Shown here in pieces: positions 6,526-16,569 of a stretch of 24,113 nucleotides of DNA (the first letter of the stretch is position 1; every line of letters begins with the position of its first letter). Source of the DNA: Aquificaceae bacterium (GTDB lineage: Bacteria; Aquificota; Aquificia; Aquificales; Aquificaceae); contig JBEPZX010000019.1 of the NCBI GenBank assembly GCA_041640635.1, forward strand, positions 1 to 24,113, read 5' to 3'. The position numbers and the translations under genes are program-made. The notes under the pieces are model-generated. The model saw nothing but the letters and a program-made list of their open reading frames with translations, had not been told where the DNA came from and did not search any database.

Positions 6526-7980
6526 ATGGCTTTTAGAGACCTAAGAGAGTTTATAAGTGCCTTGGAAAAGGAAAAGGAGCTTGTGCGTATAAAAGAAGAA
6601 GTTTCTCCAATACTCGAAATAACGGAAGTTACAGATAGAGTTTCCAAGATGGAAAAAGGTGGAAAGGCTTTGCTTTTTGAGAATGTTAAAGGTTATTCTA
6701 TACCTGTTTTGACTAACATGCTAGGTTCAGAAAAGAGAATAAAGCTAGCTTTAGGATACGAAAATTTAGAGGATATTGGTTGGAAGCTCTATAGAATGCT
6801 GCGACCAGAAGTACCAAAAACCTTTCTAGAGAAGTTGAAAAAACTTCCTGAGCTAAAGAAAATGAACGATGCCATCCCAAAAGAAGTTAAGGATGGACCT
6901 ATAAGGGAAGTTATAAAAAGGGATGAGGTAGATGTTTTAGAACTACCTATACCACAATTCTGGCCAGAAGACGGTGGAAGGTACATAACCTTTGGACAGG
7001 TAGTCACAAAAGATCCGGAAAGTGGTATTAGAAACGTGGGGTTATACAGAGTTCAAGTTTTATCAAGTACAGAACTTGCTTTGCATTGGCAGATACACAA
7101 AAACGGTAATCACCACTACTGGAAAGCAAAAAGATTGGGTGAAAAACTACCAGTGGCAATAGTTATAGGTGGTGATCCCGTTTTGTCTTATGTATCATCC
7201 GCACCTTTGCCACCTGAGGTTGACGAATATCTTTTTGCAGGCATAATAAGAGAAAAGCCTGTGGAGCTGATAAAAGGTATAACGGTTGATTTAGAGTATC
7301 CAGCGCATGCGGAGATTGTTATAGAGGGTTACGTAGATCCAAACGAGCCTTTAGTAGATGAGGGTCCCTTTGGTGACCATACGGGCTTTTACACACCAGT
7401 GGATAAGTATCCTAGAATGCACATTACCGCCATTTTACACAGAAAGAACCCTATATACTTGGCTACGGTAGTAGGAAGACCACCACAGGAAGACAAATAC
7501 ATAGGATATGCTACAGAGAGAATATTCTTACCTTTGATAAAGTTCAACCTTCCAGAGGTTGTAGATTACCACTTACCTGCCGAAGGTGTATTCCACAACT
7601 TTTGTTTTGTATCTATAGACAAAAGGTTTCCAGGGCACGCTTACAAGGTAGCTTACGCTTTACTTGGTTTGGGGCTTATGTCCTTGGAAAAGTTTATAGT
7701 AGTTTTTGATGATTGGATAGACGTTCACGATATCGGGCAAGTACTTTGGGCATGGGGAAATAATGTAGATCCGGCTAGAGATGTCGTGATTTTGAAAGGT
7801 CCAATAGACGTTTTGGATCACTCCACTAACGAGGTTGGTTTTGGTGGTAAGATGGTTATAGACGCAACTACAAAATGGAAAGAGGAAGGTTACACAAGGG
7901 AGTGGCCAAAGGTAATAGAAATGACAAAGGAAGTTAAGGAGAGAATTGACAAGATATGGAACAAATTGGGAATAGAGTAA
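6526..7980 (+). CDS. UbiD-family (prFMN-dependent) decarboxylase, probably the menaquinone-biosynthesis type
   Basis: MAFRDLREFI, DGGRYIT, NVGLYRVQ, EGPFGDHTGFY, GRPPQED, GPIDVLDH, GGKMVIDAT. ATG at 6526 preferred over the upstream TTG. Confidence 0.88.
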   Translation: MAFRDLREFISALEKEKELVRIKEEVSPILEITEVTDRVSKMEKGGKALLFENVKGYSIPVLTNMLGSEKRIKLALGYENLEDIGWKLYRMLRPEVPKTFLEKLKKLPELKKMNDAIPKEVKDGPIREVIKRDEVDVLELPIPQFWPEDGGRYITFGQVVTKDPESGIRNVGLYRVQVLSSTELALHWQIHKNGNHHYWKAKRLGEKLPVAIVIGGDPVLSYVSSAPLPPEVDEYLFAGIIREKPVELIKGITVDLEYPAHAEIVIEGYVDPNEPLVDEGPFGDHTGFYTPVDKYPRMHITAILHRKNPIYLATVVGRPPQEDKYIGYATERIFLPLIKFNLPEVVDYHLPAEGVFHNFCFVSIDKRFPGHAYKVAYALLGLGLMSLEKFIVVFDDWIDVHDIGQVLWAWGNNVDPARDVVILKGPIDVLDHSTNEVGFGGKMVIDATTKWKEEGYTREWPKVIEMTKEVKERIDKIWNKLGIE

Positions 7981-8678
7981 AGCTTTTTTCTAAAGTAGAG
8001 TTTTTAGACAGTCAAATACATGCCAATTTGGGTTGGCAGTGTCTAAAGGACAAGTGTGACGTTAGTTGTTGCAAAATTCCAGATAGAACCTTTATAGTTC
8101 TTGATGAAATAGTTAGACTTTCCAAACACTTTCCTATCACCTTTACCGTAGAAGTGGATGAAAAGGGAAGAGAAGAAAAGCTTATATGCGCTCATTTGAG
8201 AGTAAAAGAGGATAAGAAAGGATGCGTATACTTGGTAGATGGTGTAGGTTGCTCAATTGAAGATCAAAAACCATACACCTGCAGACAGTATCCCTTCTTC
8301 ATAAGAGATGAAAAAGTGTGTATAGACCTAACATGTCCCGGTTTTTCCCAGACTTTTGACAGCAAAGTGCTTACCAACGAAGGTATAAATCCTTACTTTG
8401 AGGAAAATTTTCTATGGTATTCCTTAAAGCTTGAAAAACAGAAGAAGGAAACTTCAGAATTCGTTCAAATGCTTTTTGATTTGAACTTAATAGTAGGTGC
8501 AAAATACCAGGAAGACAGCTGGGAAATTCACTTTAACATGGTGGATGAAGAAAGGCTCGTAAGCCTTGAAAAAGACATCTTAGAGTCCTTTACAAAACTT
8601 GGATACTTAAGATACATATATGCTCACTTAAATTCTATAGAGAATTGGAGTAAATTGATAAACAAGGTAAGACGTTAA
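7956..8678 (+). CDS. YkgJ-like cysteine-cluster protein (putative Zn/Fe-S chelating)
   Basis: C-x4-C-x3-CC, then CVYL, GCSI and KPYTCRQYPF, the CxxxCxxCC ... KPxxCRxYPF pattern. Confidence 0.7.
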   Translation: MEQIGNRVKLFSKVEFLDSQIHANLGWQCLKDKCDVSCCKIPDRTFIVLDEIVRLSKHFPITFTVEVDEKGREEKLICAHLRVKEDKKGCVYLVDGVGCSIEDQKPYTCRQYPFFIRDEKVCIDLTCPGFSQTFDSKVLTNEGINPYFEENFLWYSLKLEKQKKETSEFVQMLFDLNLIVGAKYQEDSWEIHFNMVDEERLVSLEKDILESFTKLGYLRYIYAHLNSIENWSKLINKVRR

Positions 8679-8693
8679 ATGCAACAATATTAG

Positions 8694-8789
8694 CGGGAGA
8701 GTGAGGGAATCGAACCCTCCAAGGACTGCCCTTGCAGCCCTTCGCTGGATTTGAAGTCCAGGGGCGGCACCAGCCTACCAAACTCTCCC
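8694..8789 (-). tRNA. selC: tRNA-Sec (anticodon UCA)
   Basis: Minus strand: 8-bp acceptor stem GGGAGAGT/ACTCTCCC with discriminator G, anticodon arm CTGGA-CTTCAAA-TCCAG, long variable arm AAGGGCTGC-AAGG-GCAGTCCTT, and T arm GAGGG-TTCGATT-CCCTC. Followed by CTA, not CCA. Confidence 0.97.
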
Positions 8790-9310
8790 TACATCTTTGG
8801 TAGACACTCTACCTTTTCTCTAATTATAAATTTTCTAACAGTCTCCACCACATCCGAAGCTTTCTTGAGTCTTTTTAAAGATACTTCATCGTTAGACTCT
8901 ATCTTTACTAACCAAGAGGAGTATGGGGATATTATAACTGTATCTGGCTTTTCTTCTAATGCCTTGTTTATTTCCACAATTTTCCCACCCAAAGGTGAAG
9001 GAAAAGTAGAGACCTTTTTACCAGTTTCTATAACCGCAAGGTTGGAATCAAACTCCACTATAGTGCCCACAGGTTTTATTTTTATGCTGTATATAGGATA
9101 GAGCATGGAAGAGAGAACTTGCATAAATCCTACACTGTAAAGATTTTGCTTTTCCTTTTTCACCCACTGGAACAAAAACCTGTCTTCGTCCACTCTGTAG
9201 AGTCTGTCTGTCTTTATCTTGCACCCTAATACATCTATATCTTCCATCCTTTTAGCCATTGATGCAAAAGGCAGACTTAGCAGTATACTAAAAAACCATC
9301 TTCTTGTCAT
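8789..9310 (-). CDS. GcvH/LbpA-like lipoyl-carrier-fold protein with a possible twin-arginine signal peptide
   Basis: H-protein-like core (YSVG, IETGKKV..FPSPLGGKIVEINKAL...PY.SWLVKI) with a Lys at the lipoylation position. N-terminal TRRWFF, hydrophobic stretch and ASMA. One Cys near each end. ATGA overlap with fdhE. Confidence 0.75.
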   Translation of the reverse strand: MTRRWFFSILLSLPFASMAKRMEDIDVLGCKIKTDRLYRVDEDRFLFQWVKKEKQNLYSVGFMQVLSSMLYPIYSIKIKPVGTIVEFDSNLAVIETGKKVSTFPSPLGGKIVEINKALEEKPDTVIISPYSSWLVKIESNDEVSLKRLKKASDVVETVRKFIIREKVECLPKM

Positions 9311-10068
9311 AAACCAAAGATATTCTTTTCGTATTTCTCATAAAGATGTTCCTTTGCCCACAGGTCCAGAGCTACGGATGCTATGTCTTCCAACAGAGGA
9401 ACCGCCAAACCATCCATTCGCATGTCTACAATCTTTATGTAAGTTCCGCACGATTCACAAGCCTGAAGCTGTATGTAAGGGATCGATTGATCGAAAAAGT
9501 GGTGAATTCTGTCATCATCGTTGTTTCCACACTTTACGCACGTAGTTCTGTTGTAAAGCCATTCGGAGTTGCACACTTGACAAACCAAGAACCTGCCACC
9601 TTGAACCTCTTCCGTATCGGATATGTAAGACACCACAGCTCTAAAGCCACACACCGGGCACTTGCTTTTGTTCCAATCATCTCTATGGTTTATATCTTTT
9701 TCAGCTTTCTTTGAGAGGAAGGGATTCAAAAAGGATATAAAGAAAAACCTCTCTTCGTCCTTTGCCATTTTTTCTTTTAGAAAGTTGTTAATCATTCTTT
9801 GTATATTGGCTGGTGGCTCCTTTAGTAAGCTCTGAGCCACTTCTGAAAGCTTAGCACTGGGGCTATCTACGCAAAGCTCCAGAAGATCATAAAACTTTTT
9901 TATGTTTTCGTGCCAGTTTTCATTCTTGGAACTCACATAAAGTTGTAGCTGGAAACGAAGAATTTCTCTGTAAAACTCAAGGATCTGTTGGCTTTCAGGA
10001 AACTTTTTCAAAAGGAAGGGAACACGCTCTATAGCGTATTCCCTGTTTCTAAGACTAAAAACATTCAT
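9307..10068 (-). CDS. fdhE: Formate dehydrogenase maturation protein FdhE
   Basis: CPVCG, RFLVCQVC.SEW, CVKCG, ACESCGTYIK and EDIASVALD; located directly after the FDH structural genes. Confidence 0.92.
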   Translation of the reverse strand: MNVFSLRNREYAIERVPFLLKKFPESQQILEFYREILRFQLQLYVSSKNENWHENIKKFYDLLELCVDSPSAKLSEVAQSLLKEPPANIQRMINNFLKEKMAKDEERFFFISFLNPFLSKKAEKDINHRDDWNKSKCPVCGFRAVVSYISDTEEVQGGRFLVCQVCNSEWLYNRTTCVKCGNNDDDRIHHFFDQSIPYIQLQACESCGTYIKIVDMRMDGLAVPLLEDIASVALDLWAKEHLYEKYEKNIFGL

Positions 10069-10697
10069 TTGTTAGATATTTCCTTGAACCATCTTGGATG
10101 ATGGGACATAGCCCAAAGCGCGCTTACCTTTCCTGTAATAATTCCCGACAAAGACCCAGGCACACCTATGGTTCCCATGTAGACGTGTATTATAAAACCA
10201 GCACCTACAATTATAAAGGCTATATCATGCAAAAGAATGGAAAGTCTCACCAAAAATATGGGGAACTCTTCGGGAAACCACATGATTATACCCGATATCA
10301 AAAACACCAATCCGCCTATAAAAACCATCCATCCAAAGGTTTTTTGACCTGCGTTGTATTTTCCTGCTTCTGGTAATTTTTCCTCTTCACCTTTTAGGTA
10401 ATATTTGACATTCTTGAGCCACTGCACGTCATCTTTGTCCAACACGAAATCCTTTACCCATTTGAGAAAAGCCAAGAAAGCTGCTACAGTAAAGACTATC
10501 CCCGCCCATTTGTGAAGCCAAGCAGCAAACTCTTTTCCACCTAAAAAGGGAAGCAGCCAGGCAAACTTAGGTGAAAACATACCAAGACCTGACAGAAAGA
10601 GATACACAAAGGGCACAGCCATAAACCAATGGATTAGTCTATCCACCTTTGAAAACCTTTCAACCTGTATTTCTTCCAAGTTTTTTACGTCCTCCAT
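10065..10697 (-). CDS. fdnI: Formate dehydrogenase gamma subunit (cytochrome b556), FdnI/FdoI-type
   Basis: Four TM helices with heme-ligand His residues (RLIHW, WLHKW, LLHD, IIHVY), plus AGKYNAGQK and WAMSHHPRW. Confidence 0.9.
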   Translation of the reverse strand: MEDVKNLEEIQVERFSKVDRLIHWFMAVPFVYLFLSGLGMFSPKFAWLLPFLGGKEFAAWLHKWAGIVFTVAAFLAFLKWVKDFVLDKDDVQWLKNVKYYLKGEEEKLPEAGKYNAGQKTFGWMVFIGGLVFLISGIIMWFPEEFPIFLVRLSILLHDIAFIIVGAGFIIHVYMGTIGVPGSLSGIITGKVSALWAMSHHPRWFKEISNK

Positions 10698-10698
10698 T

Positions 10699-11580
10699 TT
10701 AGCCCTCCTTTTTTTCCTTTTTGCCGACCTTTATAGGTCCAAAAAGAATTAGCTGTAGGAAAGCCCCTAGTAAAGTGCCCCAAAGAACAATACTTCCAAT
10801 TAGCTTTACCGGACCTTTCCAAAGACTTACCAGTGGTGAAATGCTGGCTTCTTTTGGAAAACCATACATTTCTACTTTGTCTCCATGCGGTAAGACGTAT
10901 ATGTAACCAGTTCCACCTACACCTTGGGGATCGTATACTGTAGCATTTTCGAAACCTCTCTTTTTAAGGGACTCAACGATCTTGTTAGCTTTAAATAGCA
11001 TCTCCTCTTTTGTTCCAAAGTGAAGGCAGTTAGTTGGGCATGTTTTTACACAAGCAGGTGACAAGCCAGAAGAAACTCTATCTATGCAGAAGTTACACTT
11101 CCAAGGTTTGTTGTTTGCATCGTATCTTGGAATGTCAAAGGGACAGCCAGAAAGGCAGAACTTACATCCTATGCACTTGGAATGGTCAAAGTCCACAACT
11201 CCGTTTTGATACTGTATTACGGCACCAGGAGAAGGACAAGCCTTTAGGCATCCAGGGTCAGCACAGTGCATGCATTGATGCTTCGTAATAAACCAAGAGA
11301 GCCCCTTTTCTGTTTCTACTTCATTGAACTTCATATACATGAAAATGTTTGGAGACAGATCTGGAGTAGACTGATATCCAACAAACTGTGTAAATATGGG
11401 TCGGTTTAGATCATGCCACTGAGTGCACGCAGCTTCACAAGCCTTGCATCCTATGCAGCTAGATACATCTACAAGTATAGCTAAAGTCTCGCCTTTTTTT
11501 ATATCTTGGGCAGGAAGCTTAGAAGCCGAGACCCTTCTGAGCCCCAACCCTACGGTTCCCTCGCTTGTTACTACGCTCAT
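10699..11580 (-). CDS. fdnH: Formate dehydrogenase beta (iron-sulfur) subunit, FdnH/FdoH-type
   Basis: CIGCKACEAAC, CMHCADPGCLKACP, CIGCKFCLSGCPF, CNFC..R...PACVKTCP and a C-terminal TM anchor. AGGAGG RBS upstream. Confidence 0.92.
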   Translation of the reverse strand: MSVVTSEGTVGLGLRRVSASKLPAQDIKKGETLAILVDVSSCIGCKACEAACTQWHDLNRPIFTQFVGYQSTPDLSPNIFMYMKFNEVETEKGLSWFITKHQCMHCADPGCLKACPSPGAVIQYQNGVVDFDHSKCIGCKFCLSGCPFDIPRYDANNKPWKCNFCIDRVSSGLSPACVKTCPTNCLHFGTKEEMLFKANKIVESLKKRGFENATVYDPQGVGGTGYIYVLPHGDKVEMYGFPKEASISPLVSLWKGPVKLIGSIVLWGTLLGAFLQLILFGPIKVGKKEKKEG

Positions 11581-11593
11581 CTTTCTTACCTCC

Positions 11594-14500
11594 TTACGCT
11601 TTTTCTACCTTACACAGGAATCCCTTAAATTCTGGTGTTTGGGAGTTGGGATCCCACACATAGGGAGTTATGAGATTTGCTATAGCCCCCTTAACTACAC
11701 CTTCGTTTCCCCAGTGAATGGGTATGCCTATGGTGTGCACTGTCTTTCCGTTTATAGCTAAGGGTTTTATTCTCTTTGTTGGTAATACATAAGCTTCTAT
11801 ACTTCCTCTTGGTGTAGATATCTTTACTTTGTCACCTTCTTTAACCTTCAGTTCTTGAGCAAGTTCAGTTGAGATCTCTACAAACATGTGGGGCATGAGA
11901 GCTGATGGTCCGTATATGTGCTTGGTCCAAAAGTGGAAGTGCTCAACTACTCTATAAGTTGTTGCTACGTGAGGAAAATCTTGAGATGTTGCCAGCAAAT
12001 CTAACTCTGACTTGAAAACCTTAACCACTGGGTTTCTACCGTCTCCCTTGGGATGAAGTATGTTTTTCATTGGAGATTCGTATGGTTCGTAATGTTCTGG
12101 GAACGGTCCATCTACGAGCTGAGCTGCAAAAAGCCTACCTCTTCCTTCAGGTAGCATTATAAATGGTCCATAGTCTGGCGTTAGATCTGGCTTTATATCT
12201 GGTACATCGTTTCCAACCCATTTTTGTTCTATATCGTTCCACCATAGAACCTTTCTCTTTGGGTCCCATGGCTTGCCAGAAGGATCCGAGGAAGCTCTAT
12301 TGTATAGTATTCTTCTGTTAGCTGGCCAACTAAAACCGTAGTTATGATACATACCAAGACCTGAAGGATCAGAAGTATCTGTAGACTTTGCTCTGTTTCC
12401 ACTTTGTGGAAATACACCAGAATACAGCCACATTCCGCAAGCTGTAGTTCCATCGTCTTTTAGGACTGCAAAACCTGGAACACGTTCACCTTTCTTGGCT
12501 ACTACATTTCCTTTGTCATCGGTTAGATCCTCTAAAGCGTATCCGTTCATTTCGTGAAGGATTTCTTCCGCAGTTGGATGGTATGGGTTGCGGAAGTTCC
12601 ATGTTAGTTTGAGTATTGGGTCTGGAAATGCACCGCCTTCTTTCTGGTAGAGCTCCCTGAGTTTCATAAAGAAGTTGGCAACTATCCAAAACTCATCTTT
12701 TGCATCTCCGGGCGGATCTAAAGCTTTCCAGTGCCATTTTATAACTCTTCCACTGTTTGTAAAGGATGAATCCTTTTCTGCAAATATAGCTGAAGGCAAC
12801 AGAAGCACTTCTGTGTTTATATTTTTGGGATTGCTCTTCCAGAAACCCGCCATCTCCGTTTCAAAGGTGTCTATAAATACCATCCACTTGAGCTTGCTAA
12901 GTCCATTTATAGCTTTTTGGGCGTTTGCTGTATTGTTTACTATATTGACACCAAAGGACACAAATCCATCAAGCTTACCTCTATACATCCTGTCTACTAT
13001 ATCATCCCAAGATATCAGTTTTTCCATCTTTGGAAGGTAGTGATAAGCAAATTCGTTTTCCTGTGTTGCATGCGGACCAAACCAAGCCTTTAGAAGGCTG
13101 ACATAAAACTTTCCGTAGTTTGACCAGTAGTTCATTGATGTGTCTATAGCTTTTGGAGTGCTTTGTTCTATGTGATCCTTTAAAGTTTGCTGATTGGCTC
13201 TAGGAGGTCTTAAGTAACCTGGCAAGAATCTGCTCTCACATGCCAAGTCTGTAGCTCCTTGAACGTTGGCGTGTCCTCTAAGAGCGTTTACTCCACCACC
13301 TGCTACTCCTATATTTCCAAGTAGTAGCTGAAGTATAGCCATAGAACCTATCAATTGTGTGCCAAAGGAGTGGTGAGTCCACCCTAAAGCGTAAAGGTGT
13401 GTCATAGCTTTGTTTGGTGCTCCCGTCTCCGCTATTATTTTTGCCACTTCCAAAAACTTATCCTTGGGAACACCGGTGATTTTTTCCACAACCTCTGGTG
13501 TGTATCTTTCGTAATGCTTCTTCATAAGTTGGAATACACATCTGGGATCCTCTAAAGTCATGTCCTTTTTCGCCATTCCCTTTTCATCAAGTTCGTAGTT
13601 CCATAAAGATTGGTCATACTTTCTCTTTTCTGGATCGTAACCAGAGAAAAGACCCGTTTCCGGATCAAAGCTGTAAGTGTCCTTTACTATGTATGCCGCG
13701 TTTGTGTAGTGTTTAACATACTCTTCGTTATACTTTTTGTTTTGTATTACGTAGTTTATTAGTCCGCCCATAAAGGCTAAGTCTGAACCTGGTCTTATTT
13801 GCAAGAATATATCCGATACAGCAGCAGTTCTGTTAAACCTGGGATCTACACAGATTATCTTTGCTCCCCTCTTTTCTCTGGCTTTTAGCGCCCATTTGAA
13901 ACCACATGGATGGTTCTCCGCTGGGTTCCCTCCCATTATAAAGACTACGTCTGCATTTGCTATATCGTTCCATCCATTGGTCATTGCACCTCTGCCGTAT
14001 CTTGGGGCCAAACTGGCCACCGTGGGTGCGTGTCATATTCGGGCTTGAGTCTCTCTGAGTATGGTTCCAAGAGCTACACCAACTTTTACAGATAGATACA
14101 CCTCTTCGTTACCAAGAGGGCTTCCAATAAACCATGCAAACCCTTCCGTCCTGTTTACGACGTTTCCTTGTTCGTCTTTTTCTATGAAGGTCTTGTCCCT
14201 TGTATCCTTTACCCATCTTGCGAACTTCTCTATAGCTTCATCCCAACTTATCTCTTTCCAACTATCCGATCCCGCAGGTCTATAGAGGGGTTTTTTCAGC
14301 CTAAGGGGTGAGTTTATAAAGTCTTTTAGCGTAGCGCCTTTTGGACACAGTGTACCTTTGTTTACAGGATCATCAGGATTTCCTTCTACGTGAACTACCG
14401 CAGGTTTTACGTTCATGGAACCATCGGTCTGTGTGTATATGAGACATCCACAAGACACTGAACAGTAAGGGCATATACTTTTTGTAACTTTGGCGTTGGC

Positions 14501-14623
14501 GATCTTCATCTCCCTCACCCTAGCTTGGGCTTGAGAGATATCAAAACCCACGCCACCGATTATAGCTGTCCCTATACTTAACCCAGACAGCTTTAAAAAT
14601 CCCCTTCGTGTAAGCTCCTGCAT
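11594..14623 (-). CDS. fdnG: Selenocysteine-containing formate dehydrogenase alpha subunit (Mo/W-bisPGD), 1009 aa, Sec at UGA 14033-14035
   Basis: ORFs 14033..14623 and 11594..14020 are in frame and join as ETQARI-U-HAPTVASLAPRYGRGAMTN, the FdnG/FdoG active-site motif. Also Tat signal TRRGFLK, CPYCSVSC...LCPKG Fe-S motif, LRGHANVQG, and AGGAGG RBS. Confidence 0.96.
14004..14021 (-). promoter_or_regulatory. Bacterial SECIS element of the FDH alpha subunit
   Basis: The mRNA reads UGA, 11 nt, then GG(U)GGCC-AGUUU-GGCCCC: a stem with a bulged U and a G-containing apical loop, the same geometry as E. coli fdh SECIS elements. Confidence 0.85.
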
Positions 14624-14788: not shown

Positions 14789-15808
14789 ATGCTTGAGCTT
14801 CTTAAGATGGTGAGGTCTTCGGGTTGAGCTGCAAAGATAGGTCCGGGAGACCTTGAAAACTTAATAAGTGGATTAAACTTATACACGGACGATAGAACTA
14901 TCGTAGGAATAGGAGATGACGCTGGAGTCTACCTTTATGATGGACATCTCTATGTTCATACAGTGGATTTTATAACACCAGTTGTAAATGACCCTTACTT
15001 ATGGGGAGCCATATCTGCAGCTAACTCTTTGAGTGACGTTTACGCTATGGGATGTGTACCAATGAATGCGCTTGCGATAGTGGGATTTAGTAGCTGCGAC
15101 TTGGATATTGGGGTGTTGAAAGATGTCCTAAAAGGTTGCATTGATAAGCTGAGAGAAGCTAAAACCGTTCTATTGGGAGGGCATACTGTAGATGATAAAG
15201 AACCTAAATTCGGTCTTGCTGTAACAGGTGTCTGCAATAACGGAAAGTATATACTCCAAAGTGGAGCAAAGGTAGGCGATTTGCTTTATCTAACAAAACC
15301 CATAGGGACTGGTATCTTGATAAAGGCTTTGAAATCCGATTACATACAGCAAAGCGACATACAAGAAGCTATATCTTATATGCTCATGCTAAACGACAAA
15401 GCTGGGAGACTTGCACTAGAGTATGCCAATGCTTGCACAGATGTTACTGGTTTTGGTCTTTTAGGGCACTCTTTTATGATAGCCAGGAAGTCACATGTAA
15501 AGATCGCTATAAACTACAACCAAGTTCCCATATACACTATGGCGATAGATTTTGTAAAAAAGAAGGTTTATCCTAAAGGCGCAGTGGATAACTATAACTT
15601 TGTCAAAGAGTCCATAAGTTCCGAAAGCAACAGCTTAGATTGGTGGAAACTCCTAACACTTGCGGATCCTGTAACGTCAGGTGGATTGCTTATGAGTATT
15701 CCCAGAGAAAAATCAAAAGATTTTGAAGAAAAAGCCAACAGTGAACATCTCAACTTCTGGCGCATTGGTGAAGTCTTAGAAGGTGAAGGTTTAATGATTT
15801 ATGAATGA
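14789..15808 (+). CDS. selD: Selenophosphate synthetase, selenoprotein form (Sec13, UGA 14825-14827), 339 aa
   Basis: In frame upstream of the ORF-track call: [22 protein letters not shown]...GDDAGVY...TVDFITPVV. Further motifs [33 protein letters not shown] and DPVTSGGLL. Confidence 0.96.
14839..14853 (+). promoter_or_regulatory. Putative SECIS element of selD
   Basis: UGA, 11 nt, then the hairpin AGGUC-CGGGA-GACCU with G in the apical loop. Confidence 0.75.
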
Positions 15809-15877
15809 GGTTATGCGAAAATCAGTGTGTCTCAAGTTTTTTTATGGAAAACCTAAGATAAGCAAAGTTCTAAAAAA

Positions 15878-16569
15878 CTATGAAAGATCTAAATCACACG
15901 ATAAAAACTGAATTATATCCGCTACATAATCTTTCAAGTCGTAATATTCTCCCGATGAGTTAAATACCACCTCAGCAGGTGTAGGTCTAACAAGCTAGCA
16001 TCTTGTTCCTTTATTTGTGACACTTTTTAGTGTTTCAATGTTTTTTCTTAACTTAAATTTCTTAATTTCTAACTTAATTTGATTGTTCCTTGAAATATAT
16101 ATTAGATAATTGTTCAATTTTTTATTTTTCCTAAAGTTTTGATCTAATACAGCTCTTTCACTTATCGCAATGATCTATCCTAACCATAGATCATCGTAAA
16201 GCATCTCTTCAAGCAGTTTTTTGAAATACATAATGTCATGCTTATGTTTACCAGCAAATAAACTGTTAATAACTTCATTTCCATACGCAGTGATTATATT
16301 CACGTTAATGCCCTTTTTGGTGTTTTCTCTTCATAAACTTTATGTGGAACGTTCATTTCTCTAAGAGTTTTGACTATATTATCTCTACCTCGTAAGAGTC
16401 CATTGTAAACATATACCCCATTCTTCATCCTTTTGAGTAGTTGCAGATTCTCCCTGGATATCAAACAAAACCCCGCCTACGAGAGAAACATTCTTTACAC
16501 CAGCTTTGTTAATACAATCCTTGATGGATTTATTTGTGATAATCAGTTTGGTAAACTTGTTAGTAAATT
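15878..16569 (-). pseudogene. Degraded protein-coding gene of unknown family (~230 codons, two frameshifts, two in-frame TAG stops, no start)
   Basis: Consecutive protein-like minus-strand segments: FTNKFTKLII...VGGVLFDIQGESATTQKDEEWGIC / YNGLLRGRDNIVKTLREMNVPHKVYEEK / KKGINVNIITAYGNEV...EEMLYDDLWLG*IIAISERAVLD...GTRC*LVRPTP...YVADIIQFLSCDLDLS*. In-frame TAGs at 16175-16177 and 15995-15997; final TAG at 15878-15880. Confidence 0.7.

Follow-up and report, generated by a model that had tools for sequence, protein, structure and literature searches.

The final protein gene of a selenocysteine formate dehydrogenase operon

The window, by which we mean the whole 24,113-nucleotide stretch of DNA analysed (Aquificaceae bacterium, GCA_041640635.1, contig JBEPZX010000019.1), carries on its reverse strand an fdnG-fdnH-fdnI-fdhE run, and an LbpA-like gene is the last protein gene of this selenocysteine-containing (Sec) FdnGHI formate dehydrogenase (FDH) operon. 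The features of the locus are as follows:

8693..8789, minus strand: selC, tRNA-Sec; its first base is common to the stop codon of the LbpA-like gene
8789..9310, minus strand: LbpA-like H-protein-fold gene (P0001, 173 aa); orthologue of the 'glycine cleavage system protein H' of records named A. aeolicus (P0031/P0034)
8804..8806, minus strand: Cys169, the C-terminal Cys of the LbpA pair; invariant (29/29), aligned to LbpA Cys147
9017..9019, minus strand: Lys98, the lipoyl-lysine position; invariant (29/29), aligned to the lipoyl Lys of E. coli GcvH
9221..9223, minus strand: Cys30, the N-terminal Cys of the LbpA pair; invariant (29/29), aligned to LbpA Cys7
9248..9310, minus strand: twin-arginine leader, residues 1-21; T-R-R-W-F-F with an uncharged stretch of 15 residues, followed by basic residues and the internal Met22
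9307..10068, minus strand: fdhE; FdhE central and C-terminal Pfam domains, under the NCBIfam full-length cut-off, ATGA overlap with the LbpA-like gene
10065..10697, minus strand: fdnI, cytochrome b subunit; TIGR01583 over cut-off
10699..11580, minus strand: fdnH, Fe-S subunit; TIGR01582 over cut-off
11594..14623, minus strand: fdnG, catalytic subunit; TIGR01553 and TIGR01409, carries a Tat signal, and a single in-frame TGA (14035-14033) marks the selenocysteine position
14789..15808, plus strand: selD, divergent from the fdn operon; in-frame TGA at codon 13

The ATG of the LbpA-like gene overlaps the TGA of fdhE in an ATGA at 9310-9307, confirming the translational coupling that the original prediction had read from the sequence. 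At the opposite end the TAG stop supplies the first G of tRNA-Sec, so that the predicted abutment on selC is in fact a sharing of one base. In 25 of 30 loci (window stop codon 8789-8791; loci L016-L044) the acceptor stem of tRNA-Sec begins with the G of the stop codon; maturation of the tRNA 5' end would then sever the message inside that codon and leave an mRNA without a stop, an effect that could hold down expression of the LbpA-like gene. Promoter and terminator scans at the locus stayed at chance level.

This arrangement recurs well beyond the window. All 30 genomic and all 20 metagenomic loci have fdhE immediately upstream, and selC comes next on the downstream side in 29 of the genomic and all 20 of the metagenomic ones; the fdhE-gene-selC order is thus conserved and the orthologues are tied to fdh operons, as had been anticipated.

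Three further observations concern the surroundings. The in-frame TGA of selD suggests that SelD is itself probably a selenoprotein, and a plain list of open reading frames starts that gene too late. A 240-aa Cys-rich protein with a Pfam SapC match (window 7956-8678) is convergent on selC and was not found beside the LbpA-like gene in other loci. Between selD and a PAP2/PMT gene, about 700 bases (window 15850-16560) hold no reading frame of 90 aa on either strand.

Fold, conserved residues and place among H-fold proteins

Pfam GCV_H, at 102 bits, is the sole Pfam match of P0001, and H-proteins are the best structural matches of its AlphaFold model (pLDDT 88.7), in support of the H-protein fold originally proposed. 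In alignment, Lys98 of the IETGKK motif pairs with the lipoyl lysine of E. coli GcvH, where the prediction had placed it, and the cysteines it had noted near each end, Cys30 and Cys169, fall at the positions of Cys7 and Cys147 in the host's own shdr-cluster LbpA (32% identity). Together with Arg3-Arg4, these three residues are invariant in 29 of 29 genomic orthologues, so that both cysteines persist as expected; the Cys pair is also kept in all 20 metagenomic loci. Conserved N- and C-terminal cysteines are described as the mark of LbpA in the available part of PMC6067878. The claimed likeness to ESGK-type LbpA proteins therefore stands as regards the Cys pair and the lipoyl Lys but not as regards the motif itself, which reads E[ASTF]GK[RK], without the W, in all 29 orthologues and ESGKW in 16 of 16 LbpA-type paralogues.

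The family is compact. A protein search recovered 34 members among 150 candidates, the named ones being mostly from Aquificota and one from a record titled Acidobacteria, and a scan of 1.84 billion representatives found one full-length cluster at 288 bits plus fragments, the next protein scoring 111 bits. In 178 genomes from the phylum the scores form two groups: 32 genomes, each belonging to the window's family (Aquificaceae), reach 254-301 bits, one remnant stands at 139 bits, and LbpA paralogues lie at 90-123 bits. Only 17 distant records came from the plasmid collection searched, the ESM Atlas gave generic GCV_H clusters at 0.81-0.82, and a search for the origin of the gene with P0045 returned 14 distant loci, fdn genes being found in none.

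The host encodes five H-fold genes, namely gcvH beside gcvPA, two LbpA genes in a shdr-lipS1/S2 cluster, one lone LbpA gene and the FDH-linked gene. A maximum-likelihood tree was computed from 64 selected rows (26 from five genomes, 6 more orthologues and 32 of 149 outside hits) and 150 columns, its groups being labelled by motif and synteny, with no experimentally typed outside LbpA among the rows. In this tree the GcvH and LbpA sides split with 100/99 support, and the FDH-linked proteins form a 100/99 clade of their own, on a long branch on the LbpA side and outside both LbpA subgroups (KWVG and KW[AT]G); a quick 163-row tree agrees. Consistent with the original prediction, the protein does not group with GcvH. 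Nor is it nested within LbpA1/LbpA2, whose ESGKW it lacks, and linkage to shdr was absent, the loci read showing fdhE-gene-selC and the host's shdr cluster lying on another contig.

Scores against family models point the same way. P0001 falls under the GcvH cut-offs, with 61.4 versus 115.85 bits (TIGR00527) and 73.2 versus 117 (NF002270), as do all 34 family members (best E 5e-24), and the gcvPA-linked paralogue of the host reaches 145 and 157 bits against the gcvH models. P0001 has a pI of 9.4 and two cysteines, versus a pI of 4.1 and no Cys for GcvH; the pI of LbpA paralogues is about 5, and mature orthologues of the FDH-linked clade range over 5.1-9.1. No FdhD-NarQ homology was found among the Pfam matches of P0001. 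As judged from its sequence, the FDH-linked protein is LbpA-like by anatomy, but no member of GcvH, LbpA1/LbpA2 or FdhD.

Two variants were seen elsewhere among LbpA-like proteins. P0038, P0043, P0052, P0063 and P0146 carry a C-terminal extension that we take to resemble the TusA/SirA motif, and P0038 is weakly sister to the FDH-linked clade. In L081 (G010) and L076/L077, a KWAG-type LbpA either forms a fusion with a small thioredoxin-like protein or precedes one, the separate forms having W-C-x-x-C.

The twin-arginine leader and the A. aeolicus record

Twin-arginine (Tat) signals follow the consensus S/T-R-R-x-F-L-K. In the corresponding leader columns of the 29 orthologues, Ser precedes the arginines in 13, RR is present in 29, the two hydrophobic positions are hydrophobic in 28 and 29, and Lys is found in 16. 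Every one of the 30 per-genome loci has the RR pair, for which five different codons are used, and 19 of the 20 metagenomic loci have it in frame, the remaining one having an extra T within a T-run; among 21 other H-fold proteins of five genomes, none has a comparable leader. The predicted resemblance to a twin-arginine signal is thus conserved in the orthologues and not a matter of chance. In the small sample of six close pairs, pN/pS came to 0.37 for the leader and 0.17 for the mature part. The explanation of the leader as a chance open frame or as a ribosome-binding site for Met22 was rejected as the sole cause, given the five codons of RR and no consistent anti-SD pairing before either Met.

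The leader is short. Its uncharged stretch spans 8-15 residues, with 13 or more in 11 of 30 loci; in P0001 it has 15 and S-M-A is present, an A-x-A end not being general across loci. The TIGR01409 Tat model matched none of the 34 members, though it matched FdnG, and Pfam Tat models had no match in 8 members, a weak test in that P0120, with its long RR leader, went unmatched too. A Met occupies the ancestral LbpA start in 23 of 29 orthologues, the other six being without an internal Met; taken with the short leader and the lack of a general A-x-A, this makes a leaderless cytoplasmic form possible, as is a second translation start at Met22 alongside the leader. The host encodes TatC, and a crude scan of its genome returned 14 RR-leader frames, among them the LbpA-like gene, FdnG and a DsrE-family protein whose leader is about as short. 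That the leader is translated appears very likely to us; as for export of the protein, the sequence features tilt the balance modestly in its favour.

Two other proteins with such leaders are of interest. The DsrE/DsrF-family protein (L089:1277-1786; host, G000 C5) belongs to a sulfur-carrier family, of which it may be an exported member. Of the 149 hits that come next in the scan of 1.84 billion representatives, one has an RR leader: P0120, of an unrelated lineage (L086:6001-6753, Dehalococcoidia record), in which the long leader is followed by a Cys and a Thr/Ser-rich linker and whose gene adjoins CcdA-like and ArsA-like genes. P0120 may represent a second, independent case of an apparently exported H-protein.

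The A. aeolicus orthologue has been deposited in leaderless form. P0034 (143 aa, 16.18 kDa, named A. aeolicus) matches in mass the 16.2 kDa listed for aq_1052 (UniProt O67151, 'gcvH1'), and its gene follows fdhE. DNA of G001 that encodes P0031/P0034 letter for letter contains a 175-codon frame from a GTG overlapping the fdhE stop, with the leader K-R-R-T-F-L and the first Cys included; on this basis the deposited 143- and 154-aa forms are truncated, both without the leader and the 143-aa form also without the first Cys.

In the accessible text of PMC10052474, aq_1052/O67151 is filed under glycine cleavage, and Table S1 lists it as found by MS in soluble extract in two of four runs, with two peptides each. 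A preprint (bioRxiv 10.64898/2026.10.01.755906), in the portion available, counts four A. aeolicus LbpA proteins under sHdr, describes AqLbpA2_2 as departing from the Cys pair and as modified by none of five ligases, none of which is from A. aeolicus, and finds the Cys pair unneeded for ligase recognition. Because the other three LbpA-type proteins of G001 have both cysteines, AqLbpA2_2 is probably the 143-aa aq_1052; since the pair is unneeded for recognition, truncation may not explain its failed lipoylation. Five A. aeolicus proteins are reported to have been tested in vitro by Cao, Hong et al. (2018, PNAS), aq_1052 among them, apparently in truncated form. Formate goes unmentioned in the accessible part of PMC10332631, and a literature search, outside which most subscription papers lay, returned no mention of a leader or FDH role of the FDH-linked protein. 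In print, aq_1052 is filed under glycine cleavage or sHdr, not FDH.

Linkage to FdnG and a candidate sulfur carrier

Of 178 genomes, 34 have an FdnG above its cut-off: 31 belong to the window's family and all carry the LbpA-like gene, and three belong to another family and do not carry it. One genome has the gene but no FdnG; its completeness is 57%, and fdhE stands upstream of the gene, at the edge of the contig. G069, which is without FdnG and SelB, holds a gene remnant lacking the leader and either Cys. SelB is over cut-off in 49 of 90 family genomes; 18 of the 19 among these that have no FdnG are also without the LbpA-like gene, nine of the 18 being at least 90% complete. The gene accordingly tracks FdnG and not the selenocysteine trait, and the FDH-linked clade is lost with FdnG, whereas LbpA paralogues occur in family genomes with and without it. 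As the gene-positive genomes are kin within one family and many are incomplete, these counts describe block inheritance with repeated joint loss, not independent events.

FdhD was found in six of the 178 genomes, two in the family (of 90) and four in the other family, including all three FdnG-positive ones. Both family FdhD genes directly follow a cytoplasmic FdsGBA-type FDH, so that 29 of the 31 FdnG-positive family genomes are without FdhD and the other two have it beside a second, cytoplasmic FDH. The claim that gcvP/gcvT, lipoate ligase, shdr and fdhD genes are missing is true of the window; genome-wide, only fdhD is absent from the host (genome 98% complete), which elsewhere encodes gcvPA, a shdr-lbpA-lipS1/S2 cluster and a lipoate ligase, LipS1 being over and the LipS2-like protein under cut-off. 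PMC10609526 places the action of FdhD in the cytoplasm, ahead of cofactor insertion, and reports FDH producers that have no fdhD; the absence pattern is therefore suggestive rather than proof, and by itself needs no substitute. In the FdnG operons of the other family (L048-L050), two cytochrome b-like genes follow fdnH, with fdhD and molybdenum-cofactor genes after fdhE in two of three. A check for a tungsten enzyme found no WtpA in the host, and a ModA-like protein is present.

In short, a conserved LbpA-derived clade with a twin-arginine leader is tied to the Sec-FdnGHI operon of one hot-spring family without FdhD. We consider the protein likely to be a dedicated accessory of this FDH. Of the 'undescribed FDH accessory factor' first proposed, co-inheritance with FdnG and the absence of FdhD strengthen the accessory part, but 'undescribed' has to be corrected, aq_1052 having been annotated gcvH1 and tested in vitro.

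Among specific roles, we tentatively favour that of a Tat-exported lipoyl/dithiol sulfur carrier that would install or restore Mo=S on FdnG. An LbpA-type carrier would have been recruited in Aquificaceae as dedicated accessory of a periplasm-facing selenocysteine FDH. Having folded in the cytoplasm, it would be lipoylated at Lys98 by the host ligase and LipS1/S2 and exported by Tat as a folded holo-protein, like FdnGH. In the periplasm, its lipoyl arm and Cys30/Cys169 would carry sulfane sulfur and reducing equivalents to FdnG, where the Mo=S ligand, which oxygen strips from FDHs, would be installed or restored; such loss would be a standing problem for these microaerophiles, and the job of FdhD would be covered after export rather than before. 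Modification of a lipoyl domain requires that the domain be folded first, and folded proteins bearing cofactors are exported by Tat, which would make the invariant Lys and the invariant RR a coherent pair.

The chemistry has precedents in the literature. FDHs require a terminal sulfido ligand, normally from cytoplasmic FdhD (PMC10609526, PMC10385643); this ligand is lost to O2 and can be chemically reinserted under reducing conditions, with no bacterial in vivo repair known as far as the accessible text of PMC13653126 states; and the lipoyl arm of LbpA has been suggested to transport both sulfur and electrons. At least 16 of 30 genomic (1.5-kb flanks) and 16 of 20 metagenomic loci have a Cu/Zn SOD-like gene inserted between fdnI and fdhE (e.g. 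L051:7497-8006, L053:7776-8333), which points to oxidative protection of this FDH. Among the findings against the favoured reading are the short leader with no Tat HMM match, the five ligases that left AqLbpA2_2, probably this orthologue, unmodified, the change of ESGKW to E[ASTF]GK[RK], and the host itself, in whose genome no Cu/Zn SOD was found. Moreover, LbpA beside an FDH need not replace FdhD, since in Roseovarius an lbpA is found downstream of fdh genes, fdhD-type ones included. The stricter claim, of a lipoylated, Tat-exported periplasmic factor that repairs Mo=S of the selenium FDH in vivo and replaces FdhD, is doubtful. A role as reductive activator of an allosteric FdnG disulfide was rejected: the reductive switch of D. 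vulgaris FdhA is C845-C872 (bioRxiv 2024.01.10.571421, available in part), and neither position is Cys in this FdnG.

A close rival, somewhat unlikely in itself and close behind the favoured reading, keeps the protein in the cytoplasm as a substitute for FdhD, where it would pass sulfur from a TusA/DsrE/sHdr relay or a cysteine desulfurase to the cofactor of apo-FdnG before export; the short RR leader, a remnant signal, would then dock the protein to FdhE or to the receptor of the Tat system, or else the internal Met would serve as start. The same co-inheritance and FdhD pattern, the coupling to fdhE, the NifS-like gene after selC in G001 and G010, and the short leader, with no Tat HMM match and a Met at the old start in most orthologues, all suit it, as does the cytoplasmic workplace of FdhD and of all LbpA proteins known from the sources available. 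Yet a full RRxFLK-like consensus is kept under purifying selection, six of 29 orthologues offer no internal Met, the host DsrE-family protein has a similarly short RR leader, and there is no cofactor-binding domain like that of FdhD. The leader and the Cys pair could also belong to a periplasmic redox/sulfur shuttle of the FDH module that leaves Mo=S untouched, whether as antioxidant dithiol partner of SodC or as a link to polysulfide/sulfane-sulfur turnover. The sodC-like gene of about half to four fifths of loci, the encoded DsbD-type transmembrane protein and the CcdA-like neighbour of the unrelated P0120 would fit such a shuttle, which is nevertheless still more doubtful than the repair factor: it leaves unexplained why FdhD is missing exactly where the gene is present, this FdnG has no equivalent of the D. 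vulgaris FdhA switch, and FdnI is already the quinone route.

The constant neighbour selC, with selD or selB often near, invites a role as selenium carrier, in uptake or delivery to SelD, and lipoate can bind selenium in vitro. The SelB-positive, FdnG-less family genomes, however, do without the gene in all but one case, and three Sec-FdnG genomes of another family manage without it; of the S/Se carrier originally suggested, the selenium branch is thereby weakened, the gene tracking FdnG and not SelB, and we regard it as the least probable reading of all. Scarcely more probable is an ordinary LbpA or GcvH paralogue that serves glycine cleavage or sHdr sulfur oxidation and would sit in the operon by inherited accident. 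Databases do name the protein GcvH, the preprint, in its available part, counts four A. aeolicus LbpA proteins under sHdr, and all carriers of the gene are kin; but every member scores under the GcvH cut-offs, a true gcvH beside gcvPA and three ESGKW LbpA genes exist elsewhere in the host, LbpA paralogues persist regardless of FdnG, and the long private branch, basic pI and leader are unlike those of any paralogue.

Loss of the sulfido ligand to O2 limits FDHs in cells and in CO2-reduction technology, and the sulfuration of FDHs where fdhD is missing is a question raised in the literature. The FDH-linked gene is a concrete candidate for both sulfido repair and fdhD-less sulfuration, in microaerophilic thermophiles, and an exported lipoyl protein would, if confirmed, extend lipoate chemistry beyond the cytoplasm. 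The least exciting reading still corrects an annotation, as the A. aeolicus 'H protein', or failed LbpA, was deposited without its first 21-32 residues; because of the truncation, in vitro tests with a negative outcome may have to be redone with the full-length protein.

Compared with known systems, the protein is closest in anatomy to LbpA1/LbpA2 of sHdr (PMC6067878 and bioRxiv 10.64898/2026.10.01.755906, in their available parts), sharing the H-protein fold, the lipoyl Lys, a Cys pair in register and the side of the tree, but it differs in its own clade and altered motif, a pI of 9.4 versus about 5, the RR leader and a place in the fdn rather than a shdr operon. With GcvH it has in common the fold and the position of the lipoyl Lys; unlike GcvH, it scores under the family cut-offs, lies on the other side of the tree, carries the Cys pair and leader, is not acidic and is not beside gcvP. 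As described in the accessible parts of PMC10609526 and PMC10385643, FdhD/FdsC resemble it in being encoded in fdh operons, and in the Cys-based sulfur carriage and the outcome proposed here, a sulfido ligand on the FDH cofactor, whereas sequence and fold are unrelated, FdhD being cytoplasmic and cofactor-binding and the FDH-linked protein having no such domain. The LbpA-type gene of Roseovarius mucosus, known here from the description in the same preprint, likewise lies downstream of an FDH cluster (fdhGBFD-fdsD), but that FDH is cytoplasmic, its sulfuration genes are present, and the description, as far as available, speaks of no leader. As for aq_1052, it is an orthologue whose deposited form differs in being without the leader.
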